Source: an uncultured Parcubacteria group bacterium (GTDB lineage Bacteria; Patescibacteriota; Patescibacteriia; UBA9934; CAMTUG01). From it: a stretch of DNA of 64,000 nt. Position numbers and translations under genes: made by a program. Below the pieces are notes generated by a model. It was given only the letters and a program-made list of their open reading frames with translations, did no database searches and was not told where the DNA came from. The DNA lies in contig CAMTUG010000001.1 in the NCBI GenBank assembly GCA_947084965.1, forward strand, positions 147,914-211,913, given 5' to 3'. Position 1 is the first letter of the stretch. Each line of letters opens with the position of its first letter. Shown piece by piece: positions 9,114 to 64,000 of this stretch.

Positions 9114-9168
9114 ATAGCGAACGGACCGGCTCGAGTGGCGAGCAGGTCCGTTTGGCGCGAGGTTCCCC

Positions 9169-9558
9169 CTAGTGGCGGGAACGAAGGTGTCGGTTGAGGC
9201 GGCTGATCCAGAGCGCGTCCGGCATCGTCTGTCGGCCGACGTAGAGGAGGGCCGAGCACTGGGTGTCCGTCAGCAGGTTCTGGACGAGGCCGCGCTGGAT
9301 CAGGCGGTGGATGCGTTCGTAGTCCTCGGGGACTTCGGGGTGCTTGATGTAGTACATCGCCACCCGGAAGACCAGATCTGCATCAGACCCGAAGTTGAAG
9401 TCGTAGCGCTCGTCGATCACCACCTGGTAGGCGGCGGCGAAGAGGCGCTGCTGCAGGAGGAACCGGACGACTTCGGCGGGGTCGAGATCGACCGCCGGTT
9501 CCGGGGCGCGGGCGTGGAACGTCTCGCGCAGGTGAGGATGCGTAGCGGGGGATGCCAT
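9169..9558 (-). CDS. hypothetical protein (high-GC islet 2, downstream gene)
   Basis: 129-aa ORF with GC-rich codon usage. No recognisable motif. Confidence 0.4.
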   Translation of the reverse strand: MASPATHPHLRETFHARAPEPAVDLDPAEVVRFLLQQRLFAAAYQVVIDERYDFNFGSDADLVFRVAMYYIKHPEVPEDYERIHRLIQRGLVQNLLTDTQCSALLYVGRQTMPDALWISRLNRHLRSRH

Positions 9559-9730
9559 GGCGGGACCTCTTGGTGGGACGGGAATGGGCCGTGGGAATGG
9601 CCCGGAGGATCGGCTTGGGGCCGACGGGTGTATTAAGACATCAGTTTTAGTGCTTTGTCAAGCGGAAACCCGGGATGCTGCGTGCACCCCGGGTCCTGCG
9701 GCGACCCGAGTGGCGGGTCGCGCATCGAAG

Positions 9731-10084
9731 CTACTTGTTGGCGTCGGCACCGAAGAGGTCGTCATCGATCGCCGTGTTCTTGATCCCGGCGTGGCCGAGG
9801 TCGCCACGGAGGCCGGCGTCCGTCTGGGACAGCAGCTCCAGATCGACGCCGCGGCGGACGAGGGCGACGATTCGGGAGCGGTGATGCCCGGCGTTCTCCT
9901 CGATCAGCGCGCGGATGGCGGCCGTCAGCTCCTCCTTGTCCGGCCTGTACTTGGGGCGCAGACAGCAGTCGGCGGCGGCGGTCAGGCGCTTCTTCCCGAG
10001 GAGGCGCAGGACCTCGCTCGGCGGGGCGCCATTCTGGGGGTTCTGCTTGCGCTGGGGGCGGGGGGACGAGTTGCCGTTGGGCAT
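9731..10084 (-). CDS. hypothetical protein (high-GC islet 2, upstream gene)
   Basis: 117-aa ORF with a basic, low-complexity N-terminus. GC-rich. Confidence 0.4.
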   Translation of the reverse strand: MPNGNSSPRPQRKQNPQNGAPPSEVLRLLGKKRLTAAADCCLRPKYRPDKEELTAAIRALIEENAGHHRSRIVALVRRGVDLELLSQTDAGLRGDLGHAGIKNTAIDDDLFGADANK

Positions 10085-23762: not shown

Positions 23763-24194
23763 ATGAATCACATCTCGGAGGAAAAGTTTGTGGCAAGCAT
23801 GCAGGGGGTAGAAAACCGCTTTCAGCAGATGGATAACCGTTTTGAGCAAATCGATAATCGCTTTCAGCTGGTGGATAACCGTTTTCAACAGGTGGACAAA
23901 CGATTCGAACAAATCGATAACCGTTTTCAACAGGTGGATAATCGTTTACAGCAGGTTGATAAGCGTTTTGAGCAGGTTGATAAGCGTTTAGACACGCTCG
24001 AGTTTCAGGTAAAGGGATTGAGAGACGATATTCGACAGGTTGAGGATAAGATGGACGTTAAGTTCGATACGATCATCAACATGCTCGATCGAGACACCCG
24101 ATGGAAAACGGACACCGAAGCTGAGGTTGCTGCGGCCCATGCGAGAATCGATCGTGTCGAAGTGCAACTTGCGCTCAAGCCAACGACGCCATAA
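23763..24194 (+). CDS. heptad-repeat coiled-coil protein (8x [I/V]D[N/K]RF[E/Q]Q)
   Basis: 21-bp tandem DNA repeats at about 23818-23985 encode MDNRFEQ IDNRFQL VDNRFQQ VDKRFEQ ... Confidence 0.55.
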   Translation: MNHISEEKFVASMQGVENRFQQMDNRFEQIDNRFQLVDNRFQQVDKRFEQIDNRFQQVDNRLQQVDKRFEQVDKRLDTLEFQVKGLRDDIRQVEDKMDVKFDTIINMLDRDTRWKTDTEAEVAAAHARIDRVEVQLALKPTTP

Positions 24195-24261
24195 GGATGC
24201 CTGGGTTACGAGGTTTTTGGCGGGGTCAGTGACCCTGCTTTGTGTTATAATCATCGGGCAT

Positions 24262-26388
24262 ATGAAGGAATTTATGCTCTCGGGCGGAGCTCCGGACGTG
24301 CCCAAGATTGATTACCAAAACGAGCTAAACGCAGAGCAGCTCGAAGTGGTGTTGAACGGCGATGGGCCGTGTTTGGTATTGGCCGGAGCGGGTTCGGGGA
24401 AGACACGGACGATCACGTATCGCGTGGCCTATTTGCTCGAGCAAGGGGTGCGACCAGATGAGATTCTGCTTTTGACCTTCACCAACAAGGCGGCCAAAGA
24501 GATGATGGAGCGCATCACCCACTTGCTCGGGTCGGTGCCGTACGGACTGTGGGGCGGGACGTTCCATTCGATCGGGAACCGCATTTTGCGTCAGTATGCC
24601 AACGTCATCGGCTACCAATCGAACTTCACGATCATGGATCACGATGATTCTGTGGATCTGGTGAAGATCGTCATTAAGGATTTAAAGATTGATACCAAGG
24701 AGAAGCGTTTTCCTTCGGCCGCCGTCGTACACGCGATTATTTCGTATAGTCGCAACGCCAAGATGTCGATCGAAGAAACGGTCGAGACGAAGTACTCTCA
24801 ATTTGTTGATGACAGTTCGACGATCGCGCGGATCGCGGCGCAGTATGAATCGCGCAAGCGCACCGGGAACACGATGGACTTTGATGACTTGTTGTTGCTC
24901 CTCGCTGATCTTTTAGCCACAAATCCACAAGTAAAAAATGCGCTTGCGACACGATTCCGCTATGTGTTGGTGGATGAGTATCAGGATACGAACGTGATTC
25001 AGGCGCGGCTAGTCAATGATCTCTCGAGTGTGCATCGCAATCTGCTCGTGGTCGGCGACGACGCTCAGTCGATCTATTCCTTCCGGGCGGCAGAGATCAG
25101 AAATATTTTAGGATTTCCGAACGCCCACTCGGGGGCCAAGACGTTCCGTCTGGAGACAAACTATCGTTCCACGCCAGAAATTTTGTCCCTGGCCAACTCG
25201 ATCATCGAACAGAACACGGACCAGTTTTCTAAAGAGTTGATCGCGGTGCGTGACGCATTTGAAAAACCAAACTTGATTCCAACGTCAGACACGCGCCAAG
25301 AGGCGCAGTACATTAGCGAGCAGATCGTCCAGATGATCGATAAGGGGATGCCGCTTTCTGAAATTGCCGTCTTGTTCCGCGCCGCGCATCACTCGCAAGC
25401 ATTAGAAATGGAGCTGTCGCGCCGCAACATTCCGTACGAGTTCCGCGGTGGGATGAAGTTTTTTGAACGCGCGCATATCAAGGACGTGGTTTCTTACATT
25501 CGTTTGATCGCTAACCCCAAAGACGGGATGGCTTGGATCCGTGTGCTGTCGCATCAGGTTGGAATTGGGGCGGTGACCGCGACCAAGATTATGGAGGTGA
25601 TGCAGAATTTTGAATCGATCGCTCAGGCGCTCGAAGCGGATTCAACGGGGTTCGTGCCAGGGCGCAGTTCGTCTGGCTGGCGATCCCTGACATCCGTCCT
25701 CAACTCGATGCACAAAACGGATCGCCAGCCGTCGTCGTTGATTCGCATTGTCGCTACCTCTGCCTATCAAGATTACTTGAACGCCGAGTATCCAAATGCG
25801 GCGGAGCGGTTGGAAGATATCGAACAGTTCGCCATTTTTTCAGAGCAATATTCTGACCTGTCGCAATTCTTGGAAGAAGTTTCACTTAAAGACGACTACG
25901 GCGCGGTGCAAGAAGAGGGTGGATACAAAGAAGAGCGGATGATTCTGTCGACGATTCATCAGGCTAAGGGACTTGAGTGGAACGCGGTTTTTGTGATGAA
26001 CTTGACCGACGGAGCCTTCCCGCATCCTCGGGCACTCAGTGAAGCGGGAGGGATCGAGGAAGAACGTCGCTTGTTCTATGTCGCCACCACGCGCGCGCGC
26101 AAGCATCTCTTTCTCACGTATCCAATTACCAGCGGGTATGAAACAATGGAGGTGCGCCAGCCGTCAATGTTCCTCGACGAGTTACCAAAAGGGTTGCTTG
26201 AGGAGGTGCGCGTCAAACGTCCGGCCGCGTCCTATCTTTCTTCACCTCGCGATTTGGGATCAAAAAGTCGTTGGGGGGAGAGTAGTGATGAGGAGTATGA
26301 CGAACCGACGATCGTTCTTGATGGGATGGGGGAGGTAAAGAAGGCTCCGCCGCGGACCGGGTTTTTGCGTTCTATCGATGAATTATGA
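24262..26388 (+). CDS. UvrD/PcrA-family ATP-dependent DNA helicase
   Basis: Walker A (AGAGSGKTRTI), DEYQDTN, and SF1 motifs through TIHQAKGLEW / YVATTRAR. Confidence 0.9.
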   Translation: MKEFMLSGGAPDVPKIDYQNELNAEQLEVVLNGDGPCLVLAGAGSGKTRTITYRVAYLLEQGVRPDEILLLTFTNKAAKEMMERITHLLGSVPYGLWGGTFHSIGNRILRQYANVIGYQSNFTIMDHDDSVDLVKIVIKDLKIDTKEKRFPSAAVVHAIISYSRNAKMSIEETVETKYSQFVDDSSTIARIAAQYESRKRTGNTMDFDDLLLLLADLLATNPQVKNALATRFRYVLVDEYQDTNVIQARLVNDLSSVHRNLLVVGDDAQSIYSFRAAEIRNILGFPNAHSGAKTFRLETNYRSTPEILSLANSIIEQNTDQFSKELIAVRDAFEKPNLIPTSDTRQEAQYISEQIVQMIDKGMPLSEIAVLFRAAHHSQALEMELSRRNIPYEFRGGMKFFERAHIKDVVSYIRLIANPKDGMAWIRVLSHQVGIGAVTATKIMEVMQNFESIAQALEADSTGFVPGRSSSGWRSLTSVLNSMHKTDRQPSSLIRIVATSAYQDYLNAEYPNAAERLEDIEQFAIFSEQYSDLSQFLEEVSLKDDYGAVQEEGGYKEERMILSTIHQAKGLEWNAVFVMNLTDGAFPHPRALSEAGGIEEERRLFYVATTRARKHLFLTYPITSGYETMEVRQPSMFLDELPKGLLEEVRVKRPAASYLSSPRDLGSKSRWGESSDEEYDEPTIVLDGMGEVKKAPPRTGFLRSIDEL

Positions 26389-28361: not shown

Positions 28362-29588
28362 CTACAACTCGTGATCGTAATGCCAGCCGCTGGAACGCGT
28401 TTTGAACTCGACTCCTAAGAGAGAGGCGCGTGTCCACGACCCTGATCCATACCGGGACTGAATTTTATCCAAGGCAGAAGTTGCGCTGAGCAATCTCTGT
28501 TCTTTTTTAAACAATGATCGCGCTTCAGCACCAGTGCAAAGCTGGCTGGCGGTGATGCCGATCAGGCGCACAGGGTGATCGAGATCGTTTTTGATTAAAC
28601 TCCAACCGATCTCGGCCAGTTTGGCGCCGTCGGACGTTGGTTCAGCAAAGCGATGCTCGCGGCCAAATCCGCCCAAGTCGCCGAAGCGTACGTAGGCAGA
28701 AACAGAACGAGCGACAAGTCCGTCTCGGCGCAATCGCCAAGCGACTTTGTCGGCGAGTGCCAGCAGTTGCCGCTTAATATCGCGCGGGTCATCTAAATCA
28801 CGCGGCATCGTATACGAATGACCAACAGATTTCGGTGCTGCCTCGCTACTGGCAACAGGGGAGTCGTCGCGACCAAAGGCCGCCTCATGTAACCACCAGC
28901 CCCAACTTTTAAACTCTTGTACCAGGAGCTCGCGCGGATAGCGGCGCAATTGTTCAACAGTAAAAATGCCCAGATCGGCCAGATGCTCCTGTGTGCGCCG
29001 GCCGATTCCGGAGATATCCTCAAGTTCGCAAGATCCAACAAAGTCGAGCACCGCTTCTGGCCGCACAACGGTTAGGCCGTTTGGTTTGTGGGAGCCAGCA
29101 GCGAGTTTAGCGATTAACTTATTCGGCCCGATGCCAACCGACGCCGTAATTCGTTCACCGCACTCTTCTGCCAATCGCGCACGAATCGTCTGGGCCAGCA
29201 TCATTGCTCCAAAGTAGTCACGTGCGGCGTGGGTGACATCAAGATAGCTTTCGTCTACGCTCGCTGGCTCAACCTGGTCCGTATAGTCGCGATAAATCGC
29301 ATTGAACCGAGCGGTAATCTCGGAATACTTTTCTGGATCTCCCGGAATAATAATCAAAGAAGGACAGATGCGTCGTGCTTCCCAGGTCGACATTGCTGTT
29401 TTCACTCCAAGCCGTTTGGCTTCAACAGATGCTGTAGCCACGATCGTGCGTTGGGCCTGATCCGCTCGTGAAGGATCAAAACTCTTGCCACTGACCCCAA
29501 TCGGCTTGCCACGCAAAAACGGATTCGCTTGCTGTTCAACGCTCGCGAAGTACGAGTTCATGTCGATGTGCATGATGATGCGATCCAT
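28362..29588 (-). CDS. dinB: DNA polymerase IV (Y-family)
   Basis: IMHIDMNSYFASVE, SVDESYLDV and other UmuC/DinB motifs. Confidence 0.9.
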   Translation of the reverse strand: MDRIIMHIDMNSYFASVEQQANPFLRGKPIGVSGKSFDPSRADQAQRTIVATASVEAKRLGVKTAMSTWEARRICPSLIIIPGDPEKYSEITARFNAIYRDYTDQVEPASVDESYLDVTHAARDYFGAMMLAQTIRARLAEECGERITASVGIGPNKLIAKLAAGSHKPNGLTVVRPEAVLDFVGSCELEDISGIGRRTQEHLADLGIFTVEQLRRYPRELLVQEFKSWGWWLHEAAFGRDDSPVASSEAAPKSVGHSYTMPRDLDDPRDIKRQLLALADKVAWRLRRDGLVARSVSAYVRFGDLGGFGREHRFAEPTSDGAKLAEIGWSLIKNDLDHPVRLIGITASQLCTGAEARSLFKKEQRLLSATSALDKIQSRYGSGSWTRASLLGVEFKTRSSGWHYDHEL

Positions 29589-29716
29589 AAGGGAGTGGAT
29601 AGTGATATCGACGGAGGAGGTTCGAGCTGACGAGTTCTCTTTTCGCGCGCAGCCCTTATCCTTTCTTCGGGGTCGAGCACGAAAAGAGTGTCAGCGAGAC
29701 CGAGTACGGCGATATC

Positions 29717-29965
29717 TTATCCATCACAATACATTTCGGTTAATCGCCACTCGAGCAATTCTGGATCCAGTTTTAACTTAAACGCGTTGGCATCATCAGA
29801 GACAGAGAAGTAGAATAAACGCTTCGTCCCTTCGCGGCCAGGGTGCACCAGGTTCACATGCTTAATGTCATACATCTGGTTTTGCCAACGCATCTTCAGC
29901 GGCCGCACGCGGTTTTTGGTGAACGTGACGATCACGTCCACCGGGTCGTTCAAAAACGTGTGCAT
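29717..29965 (-). CDS. hypothetical small protein in the lexA-dinB operon
   Basis: 82-aa ORF co-oriented between lexA and dinB, ending 129 nt upstream of the dinB start. No known motif. Confidence 0.45.
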   Translation of the reverse strand: MHTFLNDPVDVIVTFTKNRVRPLKMRWQNQMYDIKHVNLVHPGREGTKRLFYFSVSDDANAFKLKLDPELLEWRLTEMYCDG

Positions 29966-29966
29966 A

Positions 29967-30158
29967 TTAAATGTGCGCTAAGATCCCGCGGACGATCTGC
30001 TTAAACTTGCGGCGGCTGGTGTGTACCCGCAGCATCTTGCGCGCATGTTGAATCCGGCGCAGGGACTTGGTTGGCATGAACGAAACGGTCGAACCGTAGT
30101 AGCGAAGAATGGCTTCAGACATAGAGTTTTGTATAGGCGGGGCCACTGCGCCCCGCAT
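29967..30158 (-). CDS. hypothetical small basic protein in the lexA-dinB operon (true start probably the internal Met at 30122)
   Basis: 51-63 aa, Arg/Lys-rich. The first 12 codons of the long form overlap the family-B hairpin repeat. Confidence 0.35.
   Translation of the reverse strand: MRGAVAPPIQNSMSEAILRYYGSTVSFMPTKSLRRIQHARKMLRVHTSRRKFKQIVRGILAHI
30126..30152 (-). repeat. GC-hairpin repeat, family B, copy 2 (inverted orientation)
   Basis: Minus-strand reading GCGGGGCGCAGTGGCCCCGCCTATAC, downstream of lexA. Confidence 0.65.
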
Positions 30159-30210
30159 GAGTTAACAAATTTAATCAACCGTACATGGGCGTACCTTTGC
30201 CTCCGTTGAA

Positions 30211-30837
30211 TTATGCCGTCGCAAATTTACGAATCACTCCGCGTACAATTCCTTGGATGTTGATGTCACCGTTCACGATAATCGGCTGCATGGTCGAGTT
30301 AGCTGGTTGCAGACGAATGTGGGTTGATTCACGGTAGAAGCGTTTGAGTGTGGCGTAAGCGTTGTCGAGGAGCGCCACGACGATGTCTCCGTTCTTTGGT
30401 GAAGGGTTGCGTTCGATGATCACGTAGTCGCCGTCGAAAATTCCATCTTCGATCATCGAGCGCCCTTTGACTTTGAGCACATACGAGTTGGTCTGATCGA
30501 TCACAAAGTCGCTCGGCACCGCTATCGCTTCACGCTGTTCGACCGCTTCGATCGGTTCACCGGCGGTGATCAGCCCCGAGAGCGGGAGCATGATCGCCAA
30601 TGGGTGTGATTCCACGCGGTTCATCGGGTGCGACAGGCTGAGCGACCGCGCTTCGCCTTCTTCGCTCCCGGTCAGGAACCCTTTGTCGATCAGCGCCTGG
30701 ACGTGCTGGTGCACGGTGGCAGGGGAGGAGAGCTCGAACGCGTCGGCGATTTCGCGGTACGTCGGCGCATACCCGTTCTCTTCGATCTGGTTCCTGATGA
30801 ACTCCAGGATCTCGGATTGTTTCTTTGTCAGCGCCAT
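30211..30837 (-). CDS. lexA: LexA repressor (S24 peptidase)
   Basis: N-terminal wHTH (LTKKQSEILEFI...YREIAD). Cleavage-site and Ser/Lys dyad motifs (VKGRSMIEDGIFDGD...; KRF). Confidence 0.9.
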   Translation of the reverse strand: MALTKKQSEILEFIRNQIEENGYAPTYREIADAFELSSPATVHQHVQALIDKGFLTGSEEGEARSLSLSHPMNRVESHPLAIMLPLSGLITAGEPIEAVEQREAIAVPSDFVIDQTNSYVLKVKGRSMIEDGIFDGDYVIIERNPSPKNGDIVVALLDNAYATLKRFYRESTHIRLQPANSTMQPIIVNGDINIQGIVRGVIRKFATA

Positions 30838-30962: not shown

Positions 30963-32213
30963 TTGTCTGTGTCGTATTCGGATGTTTTAAAAAAGTTTCT
31001 CTGGATGCTGTTTGCCTGGGTTTTTGGGCTTACGATTTTTGGTATCACTTTTGCCATAACAGAGATTCCTCAGCCCTGGCTTATGATAGTTGTGGCAGGG
31101 GTTGTTATCCTTGTTGCAGCACAGTTGATGTATTCAACAATAAGTGATCTTGAGAGTAAATTTAAAAAGGAAATTTCCGCGATTGAAGGTGGGGCAAACT
31201 CAATAATCATCGCGGCAGAAAAGTTCAAAGTTAGTGCTGAAGAAGATGCGGCGCTTTGGAAGAAAACACTTTTGGAACGAAGTAGTGGCTTCCCAAGTCT
31301 TGTTGACTTGATTGGGGAGTATGAAAAGCTTCGTGATCAGAAAGATGAATACTATTTAAATAGAAAGTCTCATCCGGCGCATCGGGCTGCAGACTTAGTT
31401 GCGGAGCATTCGAGATTAAGACGCGAGGCGGAACGTAAGAGACGTCAGATTCAGGCGATCATCGAATATTATGAAAGTATCGCTCCGTTTCTTCTTGATT
31501 TTAAGGAACAGGAGTTTGGCGACCTTGATGCAGAGAACACATTGGCTGACTATACGCCAGAAGAGCAGCAAGATCCGGTAACGCAATATTTGGTTAAGGA
31601 CGAGTACAGAAGTCTTTCTTCTACCGAGAGAAATCAGCGTGCGCTCGATAGGTTCTGGTCACGACCAAAGTCAAATTGGATGATTGGTCGTTTGTACGAA
31701 CGATATGTTGGATACTTATTTGAAGCTGATGGCTATGATGTCGAATACTACGGTATTTTTAAGGGGTATGAGGATCTTGGTCGGGATTTGATTTGTAGGA
31801 AAGGGAAACAGGTCGTGATTGTACAGTGCAAGAACTGGTCGAAGTTTAAAACTGTTTTCGAGAATCACATCTTTCAGTTTTTCGGGACCGTATTTTATTT
31901 CCGTGACCAGAACCGCGATAGAGATGTATCCGCGGCATTTTATTGCACAACATCCGTTTCAGACTTTGCTCGCAGATTTGCATCTGAGCTGGGCGTCAAG
32001 CTTTTTGAGAACCACGTTTTCGATCGGTCCTACCCATGTATAAAATGTAATATCTCGTCAGGTGGTGAAAAGATTTACCATCTTCCATTTGATCAACAGT
32101 ATGACAATGTTAAGATCGAGGTCCATAAAGGCGAGTTTTATTGCAAGACTGTACAAGAAGCCGAAAAAGCCGGATTCAGAAGGGCTTTTCGGTGGGCAGG
32201 TTTGAAACAGTAG
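30963..32213 (+). CDS. membrane-anchored coiled-coil protein with C-terminal Mrr-cat (PD-(D/E)xK restriction-endonuclease-like) domain
   Basis: Two N-terminal TM helices and a long charged helical region, then RLYERYVGYLFEADGYDVEYYG...DLGRDLICRKGKQVVIVQCKNW typical of the Mrr catalytic fold. Cys-containing C-terminal tail. TTG start. Confidence 0.65.
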   Translation: MSVSYSDVLKKFLWMLFAWVFGLTIFGITFAITEIPQPWLMIVVAGVVILVAAQLMYSTISDLESKFKKEISAIEGGANSIIIAAEKFKVSAEEDAALWKKTLLERSSGFPSLVDLIGEYEKLRDQKDEYYLNRKSHPAHRAADLVAEHSRLRREAERKRRQIQAIIEYYESIAPFLLDFKEQEFGDLDAENTLADYTPEEQQDPVTQYLVKDEYRSLSSTERNQRALDRFWSRPKSNWMIGRLYERYVGYLFEADGYDVEYYGIFKGYEDLGRDLICRKGKQVVIVQCKNWSKFKTVFENHIFQFFGTVFYFRDQNRDRDVSAAFYCTTSVSDFARRFASELGVKLFENHVFDRSYPCIKCNISSGGEKIYHLPFDQQYDNVKIEVHKGEFYCKTVQEAEKAGFRRAFRWAGLKQ

Positions 32214-32265
32214 GCGGTTCCTTGGGTGCTCAGTCAAGTGTTAATCGGTGGTAGAATATAAGCCT

Positions 32266-32619
32266 ATGAGTGACATCAAAAAGCTCCAGGATGAGGTCGT
32301 GGCCTTTCGGGATGCGCGCGACTGGAAGCAGTTTCACAAGCCGAAGGATTGTGCAATTTCGTTGACGCTTGAGGCGGCGGAAGTTGCCGAACTCTTTCAG
32401 TGGAAAAACGATGAAGAGATTGATGCCTATCGTCCAGGCGGCGCAAAGCACGACGACATTAGTGATGAACTCGCGGACGTGATGTACTGGGTGCTTTTGC
32501 TTGCCAATGACTTCGGTGTCGACTTAGATGAAGCTTGGAGTCGCAAGATGGCGAAGAATGATGCGAAGTATCCGGTCGATAAAGCGAAGGGATCGCATAA
32601 AAAATATACTGAACTCTAG
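32266..32619 (+). CDS. MazG-like all-alpha NTP pyrophosphohydrolase
   Basis: EAAEVAELF...DELADVMYWVLLLANDFGVDLDEAWSRKMAKNDAKYP are MazG/NTP-PPase EExxE and D-E motifs. Its stop lies 3 nt before the DUF2075 start. Confidence 0.7.
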   Translation: MSDIKKLQDEVVAFRDARDWKQFHKPKDCAISLTLEAAEVAELFQWKNDEEIDAYRPGGAKHDDISDELADVMYWVLLLANDFGVDLDEAWSRKMAKNDAKYPVDKAKGSHKKYTEL

Positions 32620-32622
32620 TTT

Positions 32623-34476
32623 GTGTTTGTTTATCGACATACTGTCGCGGGGTTCCGCGAAGACGTTGAAAAGAATCAGATCGGCGACATCGTTCAATCG
32701 TATTACGAGAATACGACCGGCCGTCGAGTTTCGCCAAACGAGAAACGTTCATGGAGCAATTCGCTTCAGTTTATGGAGCGTATTGTTCGACGATCGAACG
32801 TTGCTCCGTCGTGCGGTATTTTGATTGAATATGTGATTCCATCAACATCCAATCGGATCGACTTTTTTATTTCCGGGCATGATGACGCAGGTAATAAGAA
32901 CTTTGTCATTATTGAATTGAAACAATGGGAGACAGCGGAGGCAACTGAAAAGGAGGATATTGTTTCAACTTTTCTCGGCGGTAGTGTGCGCGAGACGACA
33001 CATCCGTCGTACCAAGCACTTTCCTACAAACTTTTTCTCGAGGACTATAACGAAAACATTGATTCAAAAAATCTCATACCGCATTCCTGCGCCTATTTGC
33101 ACAACTTTGCTGAACGCAGTCCCGAACCGCTCACTTTGGGAATTTATGCCGATACGGTGAAAGAGTCACCGATTTACTTCCGTGATGACTACGAAAAACT
33201 GGAACAGTTTTTGAAGAAGTATGTTGGCCAGGGCAACGGCGAAGAGATCTTGTACGAAGTTGAATACGGCCGTATTCGTCCGAGCAAGAAGTTGATTGAT
33301 TACGTCTCGAGCATGCTCGAGGGGAATCAGGAGTTTATCTTGCTCGACGAACAAAAGATTGCCTACGAAACGGCGATGTTTGTAGCGAGGCAAGAAGAAA
33401 AGTCCGTTGTCATTATTTCCGGTGGACCTGGCACAGGGAAGTCCGTTGTCTCCGTTAATCTTCTCGGTGGGTTGTTACGAGATGAAATGAACGCCGTCTT
33501 TGTTGCTCCGAACGCTTCGTTTCGCGATGCAATGGTGCACAAGCTCGCGAGGAAGATGAAAAAGACGCGGCTCAAGTCGTTGTTTAAAGGATCCTCGGTG
33601 TTTGTTGATGCAGAGCCGAACACGTTTGGTGCGATCATTATTGACGAAGCTCACCGTTTGAAGAACGAAAAGGCGTACATGTATCAAGGTGAGAATCAGG
33701 TTGAGGACATTGTCCGTGCAGCCAAGACGAGCATTTTCTTCGTTGATGATAATCAAGTGATTCGTCCGGATGATATCGGCTGTGAAGACGAGATTCGACG
33801 CGTCGCTAAGGCGGAAGGAGCTAGGGTTTACGAAGTCGAGTTGAAAGCTCAATTCCGTTGCGCTGGTGCGGAGGGGTATTTGAACTGGTTGGACAACACA
33901 CTGCACATCCAAGAAACGGCGAACTTCGACGGTTGGGAGCAACAGGGGTTTGAGTTTAAAGTTTTCGATGATCCAAATGCGCTTGCTAACGCAATCAAGG
34001 CAAAGCAAGTGGAAGGGAAAAGCGCGCGGCTTGTCGCGGGTTACGCTTGGGAATGGACGAGCGGCAAAGAGGGGAATATGGACGCGCAGCACAACGATGT
34101 CACAATCCCCGAATATGACTTCTCAATGCCGTGGAACTCGCGAAAGATCGGTACGACCTGGGCGATCGATCCAGGCGGCGTCCACCAGATCGGCTGCGTT
34201 CACACCTCTCAGGGCCTGGAGTTCGACTACATTGGTGTGATCGTCGGGAAGGATTTGCAGTTTGATCCTGCCACGGGCGAGTTTTACACCGATTGGTCGG
34301 AGTACAAGGATCACAACGGTAAGAAAGGACTAAAAAAGGATCCAGAAAAGTTGAACCGCCTTGTGCGCAATATCTACAAGATTTTGATGACACGCGGGCA
34401 GAAGGGATGTTACGTTTATTTCGTCGACAAGAATGTCGAAGATTACTTTAAGAAGAGGTTGGGACCACAAAAATAA
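32623..34476 (+). CDS. DUF2075-type (Schlafen-like) P-loop NTPase with N-terminal PD-(D/E)xK nuclease-like region
   Basis: N-terminal SWSNSLQFM... and IDFFISGHDDAGNKNFVIIELKQWE (D-E-K). Walker A ISGGPGTGKSV, Walker B IIIDEAH. C-terminal helicase-like region to ...CYVYFVD. GTG start coupled to the MazG-like gene. Confidence 0.65.
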   Translation: MFVYRHTVAGFREDVEKNQIGDIVQSYYENTTGRRVSPNEKRSWSNSLQFMERIVRRSNVAPSCGILIEYVIPSTSNRIDFFISGHDDAGNKNFVIIELKQWETAEATEKEDIVSTFLGGSVRETTHPSYQALSYKLFLEDYNENIDSKNLIPHSCAYLHNFAERSPEPLTLGIYADTVKESPIYFRDDYEKLEQFLKKYVGQGNGEEILYEVEYGRIRPSKKLIDYVSSMLEGNQEFILLDEQKIAYETAMFVARQEEKSVVIISGGPGTGKSVVSVNLLGGLLRDEMNAVFVAPNASFRDAMVHKLARKMKKTRLKSLFKGSSVFVDAEPNTFGAIIIDEAHRLKNEKAYMYQGENQVEDIVRAAKTSIFFVDDNQVIRPDDIGCEDEIRRVAKAEGARVYEVELKAQFRCAGAEGYLNWLDNTLHIQETANFDGWEQQGFEFKVFDDPNALANAIKAKQVEGKSARLVAGYAWEWTSGKEGNMDAQHNDVTIPEYDFSMPWNSRKIGTTWAIDPGGVHQIGCVHTSQGLEFDYIGVIVGKDLQFDPATGEFYTDWSEYKDHNGKKGLKKDPEKLNRLVRNIYKILMTRGQKGCYVYFVDKNVEDYFKKRLGPQK

Positions 34477-34515: not shown

Positions 34516-34719
34516 TTAATCGGTGTTGCACTCACGTACGCAGTAGTAACAGCCGTTGACCTGGCTGTAGTACACTTGTGCGGCGTGGACAGCAGCTCGA
34601 CAGTTGGTGAAGTCGCCCAGGTATTTCGCATTTTCCCCATTTGGGAAGAAGGAACAGCCCAGGGTGTGGACCTCGTGATCCCCGTTTGCCTGCGCGTTTG
34701 TATTGACGTAGTAACGCAT
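34516..34719 (-). CDS. small Cys-rich (metal-binding?) protein, second gene of the unknown two-gene operon
   Basis: 67 aa, MRYYVNTNAQANGDHEVH..C..C..CYYCVREC. Five Cys with a C-terminal CxxCxxxC. 21 nt downstream of the 331-aa ORF. Confidence 0.5.
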   Translation of the reverse strand: MRYYVNTNAQANGDHEVHTLGCSFFPNGENAKYLGDFTNCRAAVHAAQVYYSQVNGCYYCVRECNTD

Positions 34720-34740
34720 AGTTTTTCGTGAGATTTTGAA

Positions 34741-35736
34741 TTAGCCGACCTTTGTTTTATGAAGCCGTTGTTTAACTGCTTTTGATAGCTTTGTCTTCCA
34801 GCCGTGGACATGCACGACACGATCGAAGTCGCGTTGTGCTAGGGCGAGCAACTGAAGACGGCTCAGTTTACTTAGATCCTCCCAATTGCATCCCATGATG
34901 TACGCAGCATTTCCATATTCCACATTCTCGAAGACTACTAGGTCGTCAGCATATTGCGCGCCGAAATAGCGACGGAATCCGTCCGTTCCAGCGATGTATT
35001 GCTTTGGATCGAGCGTACTTAGGAAACCGTAACGATCCTCAACGTTTTTTCTGAGTTCAGGGGAGACGACTCGACGTGTGCCGATGATTTTTTCGATATT
35101 GCTCTCGCGTTCTCCTGGCGGCAGGATTTGCCACGTGATCGCCACGGTTTTCAAGTAGTCCTCTCTGCTCGCGCTTGCCAGAAACACATCAACGTGTCCG
35201 ACGTTTTCCTGAATGATTCCAAGATTATAAAGTAGGTCTGCCTCTAAGTTGGACTTTTCGTATTCGAGCACCTCCTCGGATCGGAAGTTGATCGTGACAC
35301 GACCGTCTGGATTTTGATCAAGCACATCAATACGGATTGCGAGCTGTTTTGCTGGGAAATATTCACGTTCGTAAACATCGCGATCCCATTCGACTGTGTG
35401 TGAGCCGTTGCTCCAGTCACCGAAGTTCGGAGCCTCGAACGAATAGTGTTTCTGAGTCATAGGTAGGTCCTTGCGAACGCGCTCTCGTCCGTTAAGGTTT
35501 GTGTCTGACCAGCGGCCCATGTTGGCCGGGGGAATTACAGATTCTGGAGCAACGACACGACCGTCTTTTACCTCGATGTTCAGATGTGCGTAGCGTCCAG
35601 CGGCGATCGAAGCGATGGTGGTTTTAATGGTTGTACCGACGACGAAGCCTGTTTTCATGGTCGCAACCTTGGTGTGGATCCGTTTCGGGACTTTTAGGAA
35701 GCTTCGTGGCTTCCAGGGTATTTCTCGATATGACAT
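34741..35736 (-). CDS. unknown 331-aa protein (possible C-terminal Rx6H HEPN-like motif), first gene of a two-gene operon divergent from the XRE/ImmA pair
   Basis: No family recognised by eye. C-terminal ...LAQRDFDRVVHVHGW contains an R-x6-H spacing. AT-rich codon usage like the rest of the island. Confidence 0.5.
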   Translation of the reverse strand: MSYREIPWKPRSFLKVPKRIHTKVATMKTGFVVGTTIKTTIASIAAGRYAHLNIEVKDGRVVAPESVIPPANMGRWSDTNLNGRERVRKDLPMTQKHYSFEAPNFGDWSNGSHTVEWDRDVYEREYFPAKQLAIRIDVLDQNPDGRVTINFRSEEVLEYEKSNLEADLLYNLGIIQENVGHVDVFLASASREDYLKTVAITWQILPPGERESNIEKIIGTRRVVSPELRKNVEDRYGFLSTLDPKQYIAGTDGFRRYFGAQYADDLVVFENVEYGNAAYIMGCNWEDLSKLSRLQLLALAQRDFDRVVHVHGWKTKLSKAVKQRLHKTKVG

Positions 35737-35878
35737 AATGGGCTCGGGACTTTTGGAATTAGAGTAGCGCTGTCGGACCGCCCCAGTGGTTCGTTTCAGT
35801 GTGTTGATGCCAGTTTATCAGTACGGCAAATATCTTGTCAAATCGAACCGAAACCGGTATGCTATCAAAGCAATAAAT

Positions 35879-36208
35879 ATGGAAAATGAAAATGTCACGA
35901 TCGGGTCCAGAATTCGAGCCGAACGAAAACGACTCGGAATATCTCAGCTGCGGCTCGCTAAAGACGTCGGCTTTGAGTCGGCAACAGCGATCTCGTTGAT
36001 CGAAAGCGGGGTGAGAAGCGTTGCTGCAGAGAAGCTTGGCCTTATTGCAAGGGCCCTGAAAGTTGACATCAAGCAGTTGCTAGGACAGAGGCCTGATCAG
36101 GTGGATGTCATCGTCGCACTTAGGGCCGACAAGGAGCTTGGTTCGGCCGAGAAGAATTACATTCTCAATTTTATCCAAAATGCAAAACATCAACACAGAA
36201 AAGGATGA
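35879..36208 (+). CDS. XRE-family helix-turn-helix regulator
   Basis: IGSRIRAERKRLGISQLRLAKDVGFESATAISLIESG is a canonical HTH_3. Internal Met start of the 35786 ORF. Confidence 0.75.
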   Translation: MENENVTIGSRIRAERKRLGISQLRLAKDVGFESATAISLIESGVRSVAAEKLGLIARALKVDIKQLLGQRPDQVDVIVALRADKELGSAEKNYILNFIQNAKHQHRKG

Positions 36209-36689
36209 GCTGGACTTGGGGCCGCGAAAGAACTTTGCCTTGGCGATGGCTCGTAAGCTGTTGAAGTGTGCGGAGATCACGGCCGCTCCTGTTTCATTAC
36301 ATCGTGTAGTTGAGTATGCTAGGAGGGACAGAAACCTCACTATTATTTTGGAGAAGATCCCGGGTCGTATCTCAGGGATCATGGTCAAGGTTCGCGACCT
36401 CGACGAAGTCTCCACCTTTATCGGTATTAACACGGAAGAACCGTGGCACAGGCAGCGTTATACACTCGGTCATGAATTGGGTCATGTGTTTATGGAACAT
36501 TCCGGATGCACGGGCGATGATTCATACGAAGAACGTGAAGCCCAGATATTTGCAGCGGAACTTCTTATGCCAACGGCGTTCATCAAACAGGACTTAAAGG
36601 CCCTGCGTAACATCCCGGCGCTTGCTAGGCTATACTGCGTAAGTGAGCATGCGCTTAGTATTAAGCTTAAAGATTGCAGACTGATTTAG
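36180..36689 (+). CDS. ImmA/IrrE-family zinc metallopeptidase (DUF955)
   Basis: HEXXH motif (TLGHELGHVFMEH) with downstream E (EEREAQIFAAELLMP). Overlaps the XRE gene end. Confidence 0.75.
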   Translation: MQNINTEKDELDLGPRKNFALAMARKLLKCAEITAAPVSLHRVVEYARRDRNLTIILEKIPGRISGIMVKVRDLDEVSTFIGINTEEPWHRQRYTLGHELGHVFMEHSGCTGDDSYEEREAQIFAAELLMPTAFIKQDLKALRNIPALARLYCVSEHALSIKLKDCRLI

Positions 36690-36753: not shown

Positions 36754-37482
36754 ATGAATCAACAATCCACCCTCCAACGCATCATCCGCCTCAAGCAGCT
36801 CTTCGCTGACCGCAAGATCCCGACGCTTTCGAGCCATGAAGTGAATCCGGGGTTGGAGAAAGGGTCGAGGGAGAATTATTTATACTTCACTCTGCCTCCG
36901 TGTTTGAATTTTCAGCGACAGTCGCCGGCGATGTGGAAGTCGGCGCTCGCGACGTGGGAGGATCCGGAGACGAATTATTTGTTTTTTCCTGAGCGCGTGG
37001 CAACGACAGACATCGAGAAAGTGCGGGTGGATTTGCGCAAACACAAACTTTCGTTGCAACCGAATAAGCACACGGAGATTTGGACCAAGATCTGTCAGGT
37101 GTTGCACGAGAAGTTTTCTGATGACCCACGGGAGATCTTGCGGAGAGGGGAGATGGATGCGGGAAAGGTTTTGGATCTGATTCAAGTTGAGCACAAGGAG
37201 CGCTTTCCGTATTTGCGTGGGCCAAAGATGGCTAACTATTGGTTGTACATTTTGTCGCAATACACGGACGTGCAGTTTTCGAATATGGCCTGCATCTCGA
37301 TCATTCCTGATACGCACGTGGCGCAGTGCTCGGTGAAGCTCGGGCTCACGAAGGATGGGGCGGGACCGGAAGAGATCGCTGAGGCGTGGGTGAAGGTGCT
37401 GGCGGGGTCGGGAATTGATCCTGTCACGATGCATCCGGTTTTATGGAACTGGAGTCGCAACGATTTCCAACCGGAGGTTTAG
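36754..37482 (+). CDS. conserved hypothetical protein
   Basis: 242-aa ORF. Its TAG stop is embedded in the family-B hairpin repeat. Confidence 0.45.
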   Translation: MNQQSTLQRIIRLKQLFADRKIPTLSSHEVNPGLEKGSRENYLYFTLPPCLNFQRQSPAMWKSALATWEDPETNYLFFPERVATTDIEKVRVDLRKHKLSLQPNKHTEIWTKICQVLHEKFSDDPREILRRGEMDAGKVLDLIQVEHKERFPYLRGPKMANYWLYILSQYTDVQFSNMACISIIPDTHVAQCSVKLGLTKDGAGPEEIAEAWVKVLAGSGIDPVTMHPVLWNWSRNDFQPEV

Positions 37483-37508
37483 GCGGGGCACAGTGGCCCC
37501 GCCTATCT
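37481..37508 (+). repeat. GC-hairpin repeat, family B, copy 3
   Basis: TAGGCGGGGCACAGTGGCCCCGCCTATC. Confidence 0.65.
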
Positions 37509-37526
37509 GTTATAATTGCCAGCACT

Positions 37527-37964
37527 ATGGCCACTTGGTTTCGTTTGGTTACAAGACGCGTGGTGCGGAGGCGGGTGCGACGGGGGCTGAAAGGCACGCG
37601 GGCGGAGTTTTTGGCACTCAAGGAACAGGCGAGGGTCTTGGTGCACGAACGCATCAAGCATTTCTGCACGATCTATCCGTTCGTCTGTAATCGTGTCAGC
37701 ATTCGCAATCAAGGGTCGCGCTGGGGGAGCTGTTCCAAAAAGGGGAATCTGAATTTTCATTATCGCATCGCCCTTCTGCCAGAACACTTACGCGATTACG
37801 TGATCGTGCACGAGTTGTGCCACTTGGGGGAGTTTAATCATTCGCGCAACTTTTGGGATCTGGTCGCTCGCGCGGTGCCCAATCACAGAGTGTTGCGATC
37901 AGAATTACGTCAGCACGCGATCGACTTCAAAAAACAGTATGTCATGGAACAAACTGCCGGCTGA
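37527..37964 (+). CDS. DUF45/YgjP-family HExxH metal-dependent hydrolase
   Basis: ...RWGSCSKKGNLNFHYRIALLPEHLRDYVIVHELCHLGEFNHSRNFWDLV matches the DUF45 core. Confidence 0.7.
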   Translation: MATWFRLVTRRVVRRRVRRGLKGTRAEFLALKEQARVLVHERIKHFCTIYPFVCNRVSIRNQGSRWGSCSKKGNLNFHYRIALLPEHLRDYVIVHELCHLGEFNHSRNFWDLVARAVPNHRVLRSELRQHAIDFKKQYVMEQTAG

Positions 37965-39844: not shown

Positions 39845-39931
39845 TGTTGAAAAGCGAGCGCGGTCGGACCAGTTTGGCCGACCGCGTGTTCGTTGTGCCG
39901 CTTGCCCGACGGAGCCCTGGCGAAGGCCGGT

Positions 39932-40909
39932 CTAGGGCGACGGCGTGAGGGGTGGAAGTGCGTAGCGGGCGAGCCAGCGCTCAGTCTTGAAGCAGTGGAC
40001 GCTGGCTGCGGTAAGGTCAGGGGCGACCTCGAAGCGGATCTGGTACTGCGATCCCCGCGGCGACCGCTGCTGGTAAGCGAACATCGACACGAGGTCGAGG
40101 ATGGCGAGCACCTCGTCGGCGGTCGGGTTCGTGAGCGAGATCATCCCGAGGTGGTCAGTGCCTTCGGGGAGGTTGCACCCCAGGTGCTCCGGCGCGACGA
40201 TCGGCGTGCTACCTCCGGCGCCGATGATCGCTTCGCGGACGGACTGCGCCATCCAGTGGAGGAGGCCGGTCCGGTGCTTGCGCTCCGCCTGGATCGTCTT
40301 CGAACGATCGATCACGCTGACCGGATTGATCGCTTCGTCGGGGGTCCAGGCACGGACGAAGGGGCACTCGGCGAAGCAGAGGGCGATCGCGCCGTGGCGG
40401 TGTTCGCCCATCCGTCCGAGGCGCGTGCCGATCACCTGGAGCTTCATCTCGAGGATCCCAGGGCCGCGATGCCGCTGCTCCGTGGGGTCGCTTTCCGGGT
40501 TCAGCCAGTAGACGATGTGTGTCCAGAACAGGTCACGCGTGTCGTTCGGTTCGAGGGTGAACTTGCTGGCCCAGGCGCAGTAGTCGGCGTAGCGCTCGAG
40601 GATCGTGACCGCGTGCTTCATGGCGATCCCGCGGGCCTTGCCGGCCGCGAGCCAGGTGTTGTTGATCTGGCGGACCAGGCTCTTGATGACCGACCCTCGC
40701 GTGCTCGTCTGGTTCAGGATGCCCTGGGCGTCGTACTCGGCGGCGACCCGGCGGGCCGTTTCGAGCATCTGCCGTTCGGTCGGCGAGAGGTAGAACCAGT
40801 CACGGCAGAGCCGCTCTTCGACGTCGAGGCGGTGCAGCCAGTGGCGGTCGAGCTCCCAGGGGAGCGGGAGGTGGTTGGGGTGGATCGGAGGGGCGGTCAG
40901 ATCGTTCAT
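39932..40909 (-). CDS. hypothetical protein (high-GC islet 3)
   Basis: 325-aa ORF with GC-rich codon usage. No recognisable motif. Confidence 0.4.
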   Translation of the reverse strand: MNDLTAPPIHPNHLPLPWELDRHWLHRLDVEERLCRDWFYLSPTERQMLETARRVAAEYDAQGILNQTSTRGSVIKSLVRQINNTWLAAGKARGIAMKHAVTILERYADYCAWASKFTLEPNDTRDLFWTHIVYWLNPESDPTEQRHRGPGILEMKLQVIGTRLGRMGEHRHGAIALCFAECPFVRAWTPDEAINPVSVIDRSKTIQAERKHRTGLLHWMAQSVREAIIGAGGSTPIVAPEHLGCNLPEGTDHLGMISLTNPTADEVLAILDLVSMFAYQQRSPRGSQYQIRFEVAPDLTAASVHCFKTERWLARYALPPLTPSP

Positions 40910-41064
40910 CGTTGACTCCGCACGGTTACCACCGTGAGGCGAAGGGTGAAACCCCTTGAATCACATGCGACCCGCATGCTCACTCGGTACTCACCGAGCT
41001 AGATCAAGGACAGGTGGCGCCTGCGCTTTTGGATTATCAATAAAATCCGCCCGCGTCAAGTGTT

Positions 41065-41932: not shown

Positions 41933-43099
41933 CTAGCGGGAGGCACGGTCGTTTTTGAGTTCGGCGTTGAGCCGAGCGTAGACGATGAGAGCGATGAGTC
42001 CACCGACGAGGGCCAGGCCCGAAGTGATCAGGAACGGTTGTGGCGCCGTGGCCACGAAGCTCGCACCAACGAATCGTCCGAGGGAAGCGGCGGTGAACCC
42101 CATGGCGAGCGCGGAGCCTTGCAGACCCGGCGTCAGCTTGCTTTGCAGAGCGCCGATGAAGGCGTCGCCAAGGAAGCCGAGGTAGGTCACGAGGACGAGG
42201 ATGGCGAAGATCGCTCCGAGGCTGTGCGCGATGATCGGCAGGAGAAAGACGCCGGCCGAAGCGGCAAGCGCGAAGGTGGTCGCCAGCCCTTCGTTTTTCA
42301 TCTCCATCCGCCGCGAACGGAAGATCACGCTGCCAAAGGTGGCGAGTAAGGTTGCCAGAGCGAGAAGCAATCCGCTCGTTTTGTCTGCGAGTGTGGCGAG
42401 TTGGAGGACCGCTTGCAGGTAGAACCCCAAGAACGAGGCGGCGGTGAAGAATGAGATCCCGAGCGAGAGGAGCAGGGTCGCGGTGATTCTGGGTCCAGAC
42501 GGCGGGGCAAGTTCGTAGTGAGCGATCGGCATCCGTCGGATGATGACGATGAGCGCACCGATGATCACGGCAAGAAGGACGGTGAAGGTGTTGATGCCGA
42601 ACTTCTCGACGATTGCGGTTGGCAGCACCAGCCCCATCACTGAACCGACCAGTCCGTAGCCGATCACCCCGGCGATCCCTTTGGCTCGCTCTTCGGATGT
42701 TGTGTGGTAAGCCATGCCGGCGAGGCAGACGACGACGCCCCCGCCGCCGATCCCGAGGAGGAAGCGGTGGATGATCCATCCGGCGAATCCGCCGAAGAAG
42801 AGTGGGGGGATCGCGAGCAGAAGGAAGATTCCGCCAACGGTCAGGAGTCGCCGTTCGTGAACGCGATCGGCGAGGTAACCGAAGATCGGTACGGACAGGA
42901 ACTGAGCGAGGGCAAAGGCGCCGACGATCAGGCCGACCTCAGCTTCCGACAGTCCCTCGGTTCCGAGGAGGAACGGAGTCAATGCGAAGATCGCCTGGCT
43001 GAGCGCCGTGACGACAAAGGTGTAGTTGCGAACAGCAGCGAGGTATCGCTGACCTTCAGGGGTGTTTGTGTTGTCTTTGAAGAAGCGCATGTTTTCCAC
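41933..43099 (-). CDS. MFS-family transporter
   Basis: 12 predicted TM segments. MFS signature G-x-L-x-D-R-x-G-R-R-like (GYLADRVHERRLL). Confidence 0.75.
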   Translation of the reverse strand: MENMRFFKDNTNTPEGQRYLAAVRNYTFVVTALSQAIFALTPFLLGTEGLSEAEVGLIVGAFALAQFLSVPIFGYLADRVHERRLLTVGGIFLLLAIPPLFFGGFAGWIIHRFLLGIGGGGVVVCLAGMAYHTTSEERAKGIAGVIGYGLVGSVMGLVLPTAIVEKFGINTFTVLLAVIIGALIVIIRRMPIAHYELAPPSGPRITATLLLSLGISFFTAASFLGFYLQAVLQLATLADKTSGLLLALATLLATFGSVIFRSRRMEMKNEGLATTFALAASAGVFLLPIIAHSLGAIFAILVLVTYLGFLGDAFIGALQSKLTPGLQGSALAMGFTAASLGRFVGASFVATAPQPFLITSGLALVGGLIALIVYARLNAELKNDRASR

Positions 43100-63955: not shown

Positions 63956-64000
63956 GCCCTTCCAGTAGTGGGCGCGGTTGCCGCCCGGGGTCTTCTCGGC

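Follow-up and report, generated by a model that had tools for sequence, protein, structure and literature searches.

A co-inherited cassette of a helix-turn-helix repressor, an M78 peptidase and a widespread uncharacterized protein, possibly a repressor-controlled conflict effector, in a Parcubacteria group bacterium

The cassette described here lies in a 64,000-nucleotide (nt) stretch of DNA from an uncultured Parcubacteria group bacterium (GenBank assembly GCA_947084965.1, contig CAMTUG010000001.1, forward-strand positions 147,914 to 211,913), called the window below. The cassette comprises overlapping genes for a helix-turn-helix (HTH) repressor and an M78 (ImmA/IrrE-type) zinc peptidase, which face away from a two-gene operon encoding proteins of 331 and 67 amino acids (aa). 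Three of these genes, for the HTH protein, the peptidase and the 331-aa protein, are inherited together as one module, the control region of which is conserved, a conclusion that we regard as firm. The function of the module is read more tentatively. Somewhat short of an even chance, we suggest a mobile, self-contained cassette in which a switch of the CapH/CapP–ImmR/ImmA type, without a GAF domain and acting on a cleavable repressor, keeps a conflict-effector cargo silent.

The four open reading frames (ORFs) reported in the initial annotation were all found where it had placed them, and the divergent arrangement of regulators and cargo operon is real (Table 1). The longest-ORF coordinates proved too long for both regulators, whose starts were corrected to ATG 35879 (HTH) and ATG 36180 (peptidase) on the basis of orthologue lengths and of the recorded protein P0382 (169 aa). 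With these starts the HTH and peptidase genes overlap by 29 nt and the spacer between the HTH gene and the 331-aa gene measures 142 bp (35737–35878). On the minus strand, the 67-aa ORF begins 21 nt beyond the 331-aa ORF. Since each of the four has many homologues, none is a chance ORF. No recognizable Shine-Dalgarno sequence precedes any of the four genes (34720–34740, 35737–35760 and 35865–35878 were inspected), and for the HTH gene a leader of only ∼ 10 nt is predicted; the host may rely little on initiation that depends on such sequences.

Table 1. Features of the cassette, its control region and the neighbouring lexA, dinB and uvrD genes (positions in the window).
Feature	Position	Strand	Remarks
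67-aa ORF, second gene of the cargo operon	34516-34719	-	Cys/His-rich, phrog_4298 family
331-aa ORF, first gene of the cargo operon, conserved cargo	34741-35736	-	widespread uncharacterized family
109-aa HTH_3 repressor, CapH/ImmR-like	35879-36208	+	Pfam HTH_3 and PADLOC capH
169-aa M78 (ImmA/IrrE-type) zinc peptidase	36180-36689	+	Pfam Peptidase_M78 and PADLOC capP
Predicted promoter of the cargo operon	35812-35844	-	-35 TTGACA (35836-35841), 18-nt spacer, extended -10 TGATAAACT (35812-35820)
Predicted promoter of the HTH-peptidase operon	35835-35863	+	-35 TTGTCA (35835-35840), 17 nt, -10 TATGCT (35858-35863)
Conserved blocks of the cargo leader	35745-35799	-	CTGAAACGAACC (35788-35799), GGGGCGGTCCG (35774-35784), GCGC (35767-35770), GTCCCG (35745-35750)
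lexA	30211-30837	-	LexA_DNA_bind and Peptidase_S24
dinB-type Y-family polymerase	28362-29588	-	IMS
uvrD-type helicase	24040-26388	+	

Co-inheritance is most evident from the three nearest relatives of the cassette, which lie on independent contigs with differing flanking genes and have the same layout of M78 and HTH genes divergent from a 331-aa gene. Identities to the window proteins are 62–64% for the M78 peptidase, 61–72% for the HTH protein and 70–74% for the 331-aa protein, and the HTH orthologues (loci L088 to L093) have 109–114 aa and occupy the same position. Because this layout is kept amid different flanking genes, the HTH, M78 and 331-aa genes travel together. In all of these relatives the 331-aa gene is immediately followed by a DUF2188 gene (L088, where the gene caller had missed it, L089–91 and L092–93). 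In the groundwater loci L089 (2300–10193) and L090, the module of HTH, M78, 331-aa and DUF2188 genes stands between a large serine recombinase gene and genes for a ParB_N-methyltransferase and a Terminase_6C protein. After these come GmrSD-like and MmeI-like restriction genes, and prophage-like and defence genes together make up a mosaic.

The control region is conserved as well. A consensus scan of the 142-bp spacer gave two promoter-like sites placed back-to-back with overlapping -35 boxes, and the spacer was compared by alignment with its counterparts in the three nearest related loci, whose proteins share only 61–74% identity with those of the window. GATTTGACAA and most of the extended -10 element of the cargo promoter (TGATA..CT) are invariant across the four aligned loci. 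On the regulator side, the TAxxxT hexamer of the -10 element is kept in all four and the -35 element lies inside an invariant block. The leader blocks CTGAAACGAAC, GGGnCGGTC, GCGC and TCCCG are likewise invariant or nearly so, and an inverted repeat, GGTTCGTTT/AATCGAACC, flanks the promoter on both sides. The leader blocks could be operator half-sites or part of a leader stem. A CGGGAC/GTCCCG stem is predicted in the cargo leader but shows no covariation; this single 6-bp stem was all that was found, and the leader has no Rfam match, which speaks against a structured RNA.

By profile the two regulators are CapH/CapP-like, as had been proposed for this locus. The HTH protein matches Pfam HTH_3 (E 1.8e-10) over residues 12–65 (43–96 of the scanned 140-aa ORF), and its best PADLOC match is capH (E 2e-7, profile positions 6–99 of 103). 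Its N-terminal HTH domain is followed by a C-terminal tail of ∼ 40 aa. The peptidase carries an HELGH motif, matches Pfam Peptidase_M78 (E 6.2e-16) and has capP as its best PADLOC match (E 4e-19), which covers profile positions 7–153 of 242 only; its PADLOC and NCBIfam matches also take in the RmrA and spr1629 repressor/antitoxin families. No relative was found in the PDB by phmmer. H98, E99, H102 and E127 are invariant among 15 aligned homologues (14 close ones and a distant one from L024). In the loop between the HEXXH motif and the third zinc ligand, E127, H107 is kept in 14 of 14 close homologues and C110 in 13 of 14. This conserved Cys occupies the place of the cysteine switch of CapP, a loop present in one in three CapP proteins (Lau et al., 2022; Calloji et al., 2026). 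Compared with that of CapP, the window loop is shorter, and the acidic pair that follows the Cys in the window protein is found in none of the other aligned homologues.

The peptidase differs from CapP in its extent as well, ending 42 aa past E127. All 14 close homologues are similarly short (157–198 aa). Single-stranded DNA (ssDNA) is bound in a groove that lies between the peptidase domain and the GAF domain (Lau et al., 2022; Calloji et al., 2026), and switching by ssDNA, which the initial annotation had put forward, should not be assumed here since the window peptidase and these 14 homologues lack the domains that form the groove. Because the GAF domain is missing, the trigger is not simply transferable from CapP. 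In size and layout the peptidase is nearer to ImmA than to CapP. Cleavage of the repressor by the peptidase, which has been shown for CapH/CapP (Lau et al., 2022, bioRxiv 10.1101/2022.04.27.489752), is nevertheless a reasonable analogy.

Both cargo proteins belong to uncharacterized families, in agreement with the initial annotation: both the 331-aa and the 67-aa protein of the window lack matches in Pfam, NCBIfam and PADLOC. The 331-aa protein has 709 homologues in a collection clustered at 90% identity, and a profile search returned 2,021 clusters (50% identity) at E ≤ 1e-3, 327 of them at E ≤ 1e-30. The 150 best profile matches are nearly all full-length proteins of ∼ 300–350 aa, the shorter ones matching part of the profile, and no fused or longer members occur among them. 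The family is spread patchily over groups of the candidate phyla radiation (CPR), Chloroflexota, Nitrospirota, Acidobacteriota, Cyanobacteria (on a plasmid), Pseudomonadota, Bacteroidota, Actinomycetota, Bacillota and others. In phage collections it is scarce, with one weak match among 50,697 records and 2 loci among 2.9 million IMG/VR contigs. Plasmid copies are annotated as ‘hypothetical’; the one on a Segatella plasmid adjoins an ImmA/IrrE operon, and others stand next to helicase genes or alone. Elsewhere the cassette adjoins restriction-modification, toxin-antitoxin, helicase, transposase and integrase genes. On the small plasmid 5 of Lactococcus cremoris SK11 (L098, 1–3905), a distant relative of 303 aa, which matches the C-terminal half of the family with 32% identity, is encoded immediately after a very large DEAD/DEAH helicase gene, and on a Sinorhizobium plasmid (L095) a relative comes after AAA ATPase and helicase genes. 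Linkage to helicases may be a fourth recurring context of the family, beside the three described below.

An AlphaFold model of the 331-aa protein, built from 44 sequences, reached a predicted local distance difference test (pLDDT) score of 90.7 and has a β-rich N-terminal half and an α/β C-terminal half. A Foldseek search of the model against BFVD found nothing, and a sequence-profile search of the PDB with the family gave 0 hits. Thirty-eight alignment columns are invariant, among them D90, H113, Y122, E177, R235, E270, N271, N276, R306, H309 and W313, which suggests a defined active or binding site. The C-terminal R-x6-H spacing (R302…H309) had been likened to that of HEPN RNases. This likeness does not hold: R302 is not conserved, the invariant arrangement being R306-x2-H309, residues 304–308 are predicted to form a β-strand (at the confidence given above), and there is no HEPN match in Pfam. 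None of the 44 family members has a significant Pfam match. Among the weak matches only DUF3106 recurred, in 16 of the 44 (best E 1e-3; residues 195–246 of the window protein, a segment that contains a W-E-I-L-P-P-G-E-R stretch), and we judged this to be motif-level noise.

What stands upstream of the 331-aa gene falls into distinct classes. For a census of partners, ORFs were called in 80 species-representative loci and scanned with hidden Markov models built for this analysis, within 3.5 kb of the 331-aa homologue. In 16 loci an M78 peptidase gene stands upstream, 11 times divergent and 5 times co-directional, and no locus has one downstream; together with the three nearest relatives, all of which have the HTH/M78 pair, this bears out the recurrence of the 331-aa family beside such pairs. 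A LexA-like S24 repressor gene lies upstream in 5 of the 80 loci. It is directly adjacent and on the same strand in 4 of these, which come from CPR or gammaproteobacterial genomes, and 3 kb away in L038. A third class, in 14 loci, has a HEPN-like protein of ∼ 230 aa encoded immediately upstream on the same strand. The three classes co-occur in 0 of the 80 loci. In a neighbour-joining tree they separate, the HEPN-linked members forming one clade, the S24-linked members one cluster and the M78-linked members several clades. Because the partner classes are mutually exclusive and clade-specific, the cargo is the constant element and the control device the exchangeable one. Among the three devices, two are repressor systems with characterized relatives that undergo cleavage after DNA damage. 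A conserved downstream partner was sought and not found; downstream genes are a mixture of integrase, transposase, restriction-modification and metabolic genes.

The HEPN-like protein has an invariant R-N-x-L-x-H-R motif (R164, H169 and R170 in alignment A2) and weak matches to HEPN_Cthe2314 in 4 of 12 members (best E 9e-4). It forms a tight two-gene unit with the 331-aa gene in one clade (L015, L017, L029, L030, L034, L036, L040, L042, L043, L045, L046, L051, L055 and L064), the gaps between the genes ranging from -45 to +18 nt. For HEPN proteins of the Cthe_2314 type, no known gene-neighbourhood association has been given (Anantharaman et al., 2013). The likeness to the HEPN toxin modules of that study is limited to this clade, in which the 331-aa gene is always preceded by the HEPN-like gene; the window has no such partner, and the 331-aa protein is not itself a HEPN protein.

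The 67-aa gene is not part of the conserved core. The initial annotation had treated the 331-aa and 67-aa proteins as a pair, but of 82 loci just one has a 67-aa homologue close to a 331-aa homologue, and the two are on opposite strands. The 67-aa protein matches phrog_4298 (function unknown) with E 1e-21, and its family is found at 132 IMG/VR loci, mostly proviruses of ∼ 40 kb, where it sits in arrays of small genes, and also in islands with RhuM and nSTAND genes; it is thus a prophage gene. Since the pairing is not conserved and DUF2188 holds the slot in relatives, we take the gene for this zinc-type protein to be a phage-derived replacement in a variable accessory slot. A role as co-evolving partner or antitoxin of the 331-aa protein was considered, and a conserved pairing is ruled out by the same distribution; the idea that the protein is a divergent DUF2188 was also rejected (hhalign probability 0.2%). 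The family itself is tightly conserved (66–72 aa, 51–70% identical to the window protein). The window protein has five Cys (C22, C40, C57, C60 and C64), with a CxxCxxxC motif at 57–64; NGDHEVH, C22, G56-C57 and C60 are invariant in the family, and C40, C64 and H65 nearly so. At position 65, within the CxxCxxxCH motif, the window protein has Asn, in contrast to the His found in more than 90% of the family, and two other aligned members also read CNT there. One likely metal ligand may therefore have been lost from the window copy.

The regulator pair, for its part, is modular and serves differing cargo. At L183 and L185, peptidases that are 61% and 52% identical to that of the window stand divergent from cargo without a 331-aa gene. 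This cargo is a family of 88–91 aa (YDLxAPGK…PLES), with DUF2188 alongside in L185, and more distant relatives of the window regulators face DUF2188 directly. The 88–91-aa proteins (L183 4292–4567 and L185 3791–4057, both on the minus strand) share the pattern xSYDLxAPGKxY…KPLESxW…DTNDxxxxVD and by eye look Cas2/VapD-like. DUF2188 also accompanies the 331-aa family in L007, L010, L038, L039 and L050. CapH/CapP-like pairs facing operons of ‘DUF2188 + hypothetical protein’ have already been listed (Lau et al., 2022, bioRxiv 10.1101/2022.04.27.489752, Fig. 6F), and a predicted defence role of DUF2188 is credited by these authors to Burroughs & Aravind (2020). Switches of this kind with unknown cargo, DUF2188 operons included, are thus published in outline. 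The three closest relatives of the window cassette resemble that arrangement, with M78 and HTH genes and a divergent 331-aa gene followed by DUF2188, whereas the window has the unrelated 67-aa protein in place of DUF2188.

The cassette can be compared with several characterized systems. As in CapH/CapP, a repressor of ∼ 100 aa, made up of an HTH domain and a C-terminal tail, precedes an M78 HEXXH peptidase, and the pair stands upstream of the cargo operon and divergent from it; capH and capP are the top PADLOC matches, and DUF2188, one of the listed CapH/CapP cargoes, occurs in relatives. The conserved Cys of the loop may be a counterpart of the cysteine switch. The cassette differs in the 169-aa peptidase without central HTH-like and GAF domains, in the unconserved acidic pair of the switch loop and in a cargo that matches no defence system known to PADLOC. 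ImmR/ImmA of ICEBs1 and phage φ105 likewise combine a short, GAF-less M78 peptidase with a cI-like HTH repressor, divergent from the genes they control, and the relative in L089 lies within a serine-recombinase/terminase element. However, the window has no integrase or element backbone, and the cargo family is almost absent from phages and moves in a module independent of any one element. In the DdrO/IrrE (PprI) system of Deinococcus, the M78 peptidase IrrE cleaves the HTH repressor DdrO and thereby switches on damage-response genes (Lau et al., 2022; Calloji et al., 2026). The parallel linkage of the 331-aa family with repressors of the LexA type points to a similar signal, but IrrE has a GAF domain and binds ssDNA, and DdrO/IrrE is master of a regulon whereas the window regulator governs a local cassette. 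The type of switch is already known; its GAF-less version with a Cys loop, and its cargo, are uncharacterized.

The cassette sits in an island of ∼ 7 kb (30.9–38 kb), the left part of which has a GC content of 0.44–0.48 compared with ∼ 0.52. A tandem lexA–dinB pair (28362–30837, minus strand) bounds the island on one side, with uvrD further out, and metK lies on the other side. The proximity of lexA may not be accidental, as LexA-like genes stand by or near 331-aa homologues in five other genomes. No integrase was found among the window genes between 28.4 and 39.8 kb, and a search for att-like direct repeats or a tRNA gene flanking the island gave none. The low-GC part of the island holds three co-directional genes (30963–34476, plus strand) that converge on the 67-aa gene. 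They encode a 416-aa protein with an Mrr_cat nuclease domain and, by eye, hydrophobic segments near the N-terminus, a 123-aa MazG-like protein and a 617-aa DUF2075/Schlafen-group-3 helicase with PDC-S41, AbiO and Nhi-like matches in PADLOC. The three look like a separate candidate defence module. Beyond the peptidase gene, after a gap of 64 nt, a gene for a 242-aa protein without a family match begins a plus-strand region (36754–37964). This protein contains a IPDTHVAQCSVKLGL stretch that resembles the HhH-GPD glycosylase motif, and it has a weak NCBIfam N-glycosylase match (E 0.22). The end of its gene is overlapped by an ORF for a YgjP-like metallopeptidase (37443–37964, plus strand); neither gene is kept with the module in relatives. 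Further away in the window, four segments have a GC content of 0.63–0.68 against an average of ∼ 0.52 (9001–10000, 40001–41000, 42001–43000 and 63001–64000), and ORFs of 340 and 325 aa overlap on opposite strands at 39893–40915.

We suggest a mechanism in which the HTH protein would bind the 142-bp region and repress both its own operon and the cargo operon. The M78 peptidase would be activated by a stress signal, DNA damage or the replication of a phage or mobile element being the likeliest, possibly through release of the conserved Cys110/His107 loop from the zinc site; the sensor would be something other than the groove that binds ssDNA in CapP and IrrE. As the analogy with ImmA/ImmR, CapP/CapH and IrrE/DdrO suggests, the peptidase would then cut the repressor between the HTH domain and the C-terminal tail, and the strong promoter would fire. 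The payload would be the 331-aa protein, a putative conflict effector that harms the invader or the cell and is for that reason kept off. A further-reaching proposal is that the 331-aa family constitutes a new class of effector without recognizable fold relatives, present in most bacterial phyla, CPR included, and held by three interchangeable safety devices and serving anti-phage defence or damage-triggered suicide, and that the GAF-less Cys-loop peptidase senses its trigger in a way unlike the CapP/IrrE groove. This we hold to be possible but somewhat more doubtful.

Several observations count against a silenced conflict effector. None of 44 family members has a match in PADLOC (PADLOC-DB v2), and the structural model of the 331-aa protein has no enzyme-like relative in the libraries searched. 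The peptidase is without the central HTH-like and C-terminal GAF domains that form the ssDNA groove of CapP and IrrE, and because it has no GAF sensor the proposed DNA-damage trigger rests on the ImmA analogy and on the parallel S24 association. Promoter-like matches are no more numerous in the 142-bp region than in shuffled sequence, so that the promoter calls carry weight only because of their conservation among related loci. In the census, 41 of the 80 loci, more than half, lack all three partners, which argues that the 331-aa family does not always need tight control; in another 4 loci an HTH match is all that lies upstream. Finally, the LexA-type link and the proximity of lexA–dinB fit a benign role in the SOS response or in repair equally well.

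Such a role is the most serious alternative. The 331-aa protein would then be harmless DNA-damage-response cargo, acting in repair, damage tolerance or cell-cycle control, and the HTH/M78 pair would be a local regulator of the DdrO/IrrE or SOS kind. It is consistent with this that the 331-aa gene lies directly downstream of LexA-like S24 repressor genes in four genomes, and at 3 kb in L038, that the window cassette is 4 kb from lexA–dinB with uvrD nearby, and that the family occurs in the small genomes of CPR bacteria. The HhH-GPD-like ‘IPDTHV’ motif of the downstream 242-aa protein, known from its sequence and the weak NCBIfam match, would also suit a repair function, but that gene is not conserved with the module. 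For a whole clade, moreover, the partner is a HEPN-like protein, which is typical of conflict systems, and the family has a patchy spread that includes plasmids and neighbourhoods of restriction-modification, toxin-antitoxin and transposase genes. We favour a conflict effector over the benign role on account of this clade, of the occurrence in islands and on plasmids and of the patchy spread, and consider the benign role rather unlikely, if far from negligible.

The two remaining explanations are less probable still. The pair could be an ImmR/ImmA-type switch governing lysogeny or excision of a mobile element or decayed prophage, with the 331-aa and 67-aa genes as its first early genes. The peptidase is indeed GAF-less and of ImmA size (ImmA of ICEBs1 is similar to the 169 aa found here), the order of HTH gene and then peptidase gene, divergent from the controlled genes, is that of ImmR–ImmA, the 67-aa gene is a typical prophage gene, and in L089 and L090 the module lies between recombinase and ParB-methyltransferase/large-terminase genes. 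On the other hand, the 331-aa family is nearly absent from phage collections, the island has no integrase, att-like direct repeats or flanking tRNA gene, and the presence of the three-gene module in four different backbones implies that it moves as a unit independent of any one element. We therefore regard an element switch as improbable. A three-component addiction module resembling toxin-antitoxin systems (Xre regulator, COG2856 peptidase and toxin), which would mainly stabilize the island, appears marginally less probable again. The downstream slot of type II systems is usually held by the toxin, and in the HEPN-linked clade that position is held by the 331-aa family member. Further features in keeping with addiction are the operon-like co-directional order of HTH, M78 and 331-aa genes in L003 (115-nt gap), the fused HTH–M78 proteins that face the 331-aa gene in L012 and L052, and the matches of the peptidase to the RmrA and spr1629 families. 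Most M78-linked loci are divergent rather than operonic, however, and addiction overlaps largely with the silenced conflict effector that we prefer, from which it differs mainly in the purpose assigned.

Repressors that are cleaved by a protease, as in ImmA/ImmR, IrrE/DdrO and CapP/CapH, are a general means of tying dangerous or costly genes to DNA damage and infection, and most of their cargo is unknown. One such cargo is now defined, a uniform family of ∼ 325 aa with ∼ 2,000 clusters at 50% identity and a confidently predicted structure that is unmatched in the libraries searched. As a compact cassette of three or four genes, it is a testable candidate for a new effector, and its minimal, GAF-less peptidase could reveal how short enzymes of the ImmA type are activated.

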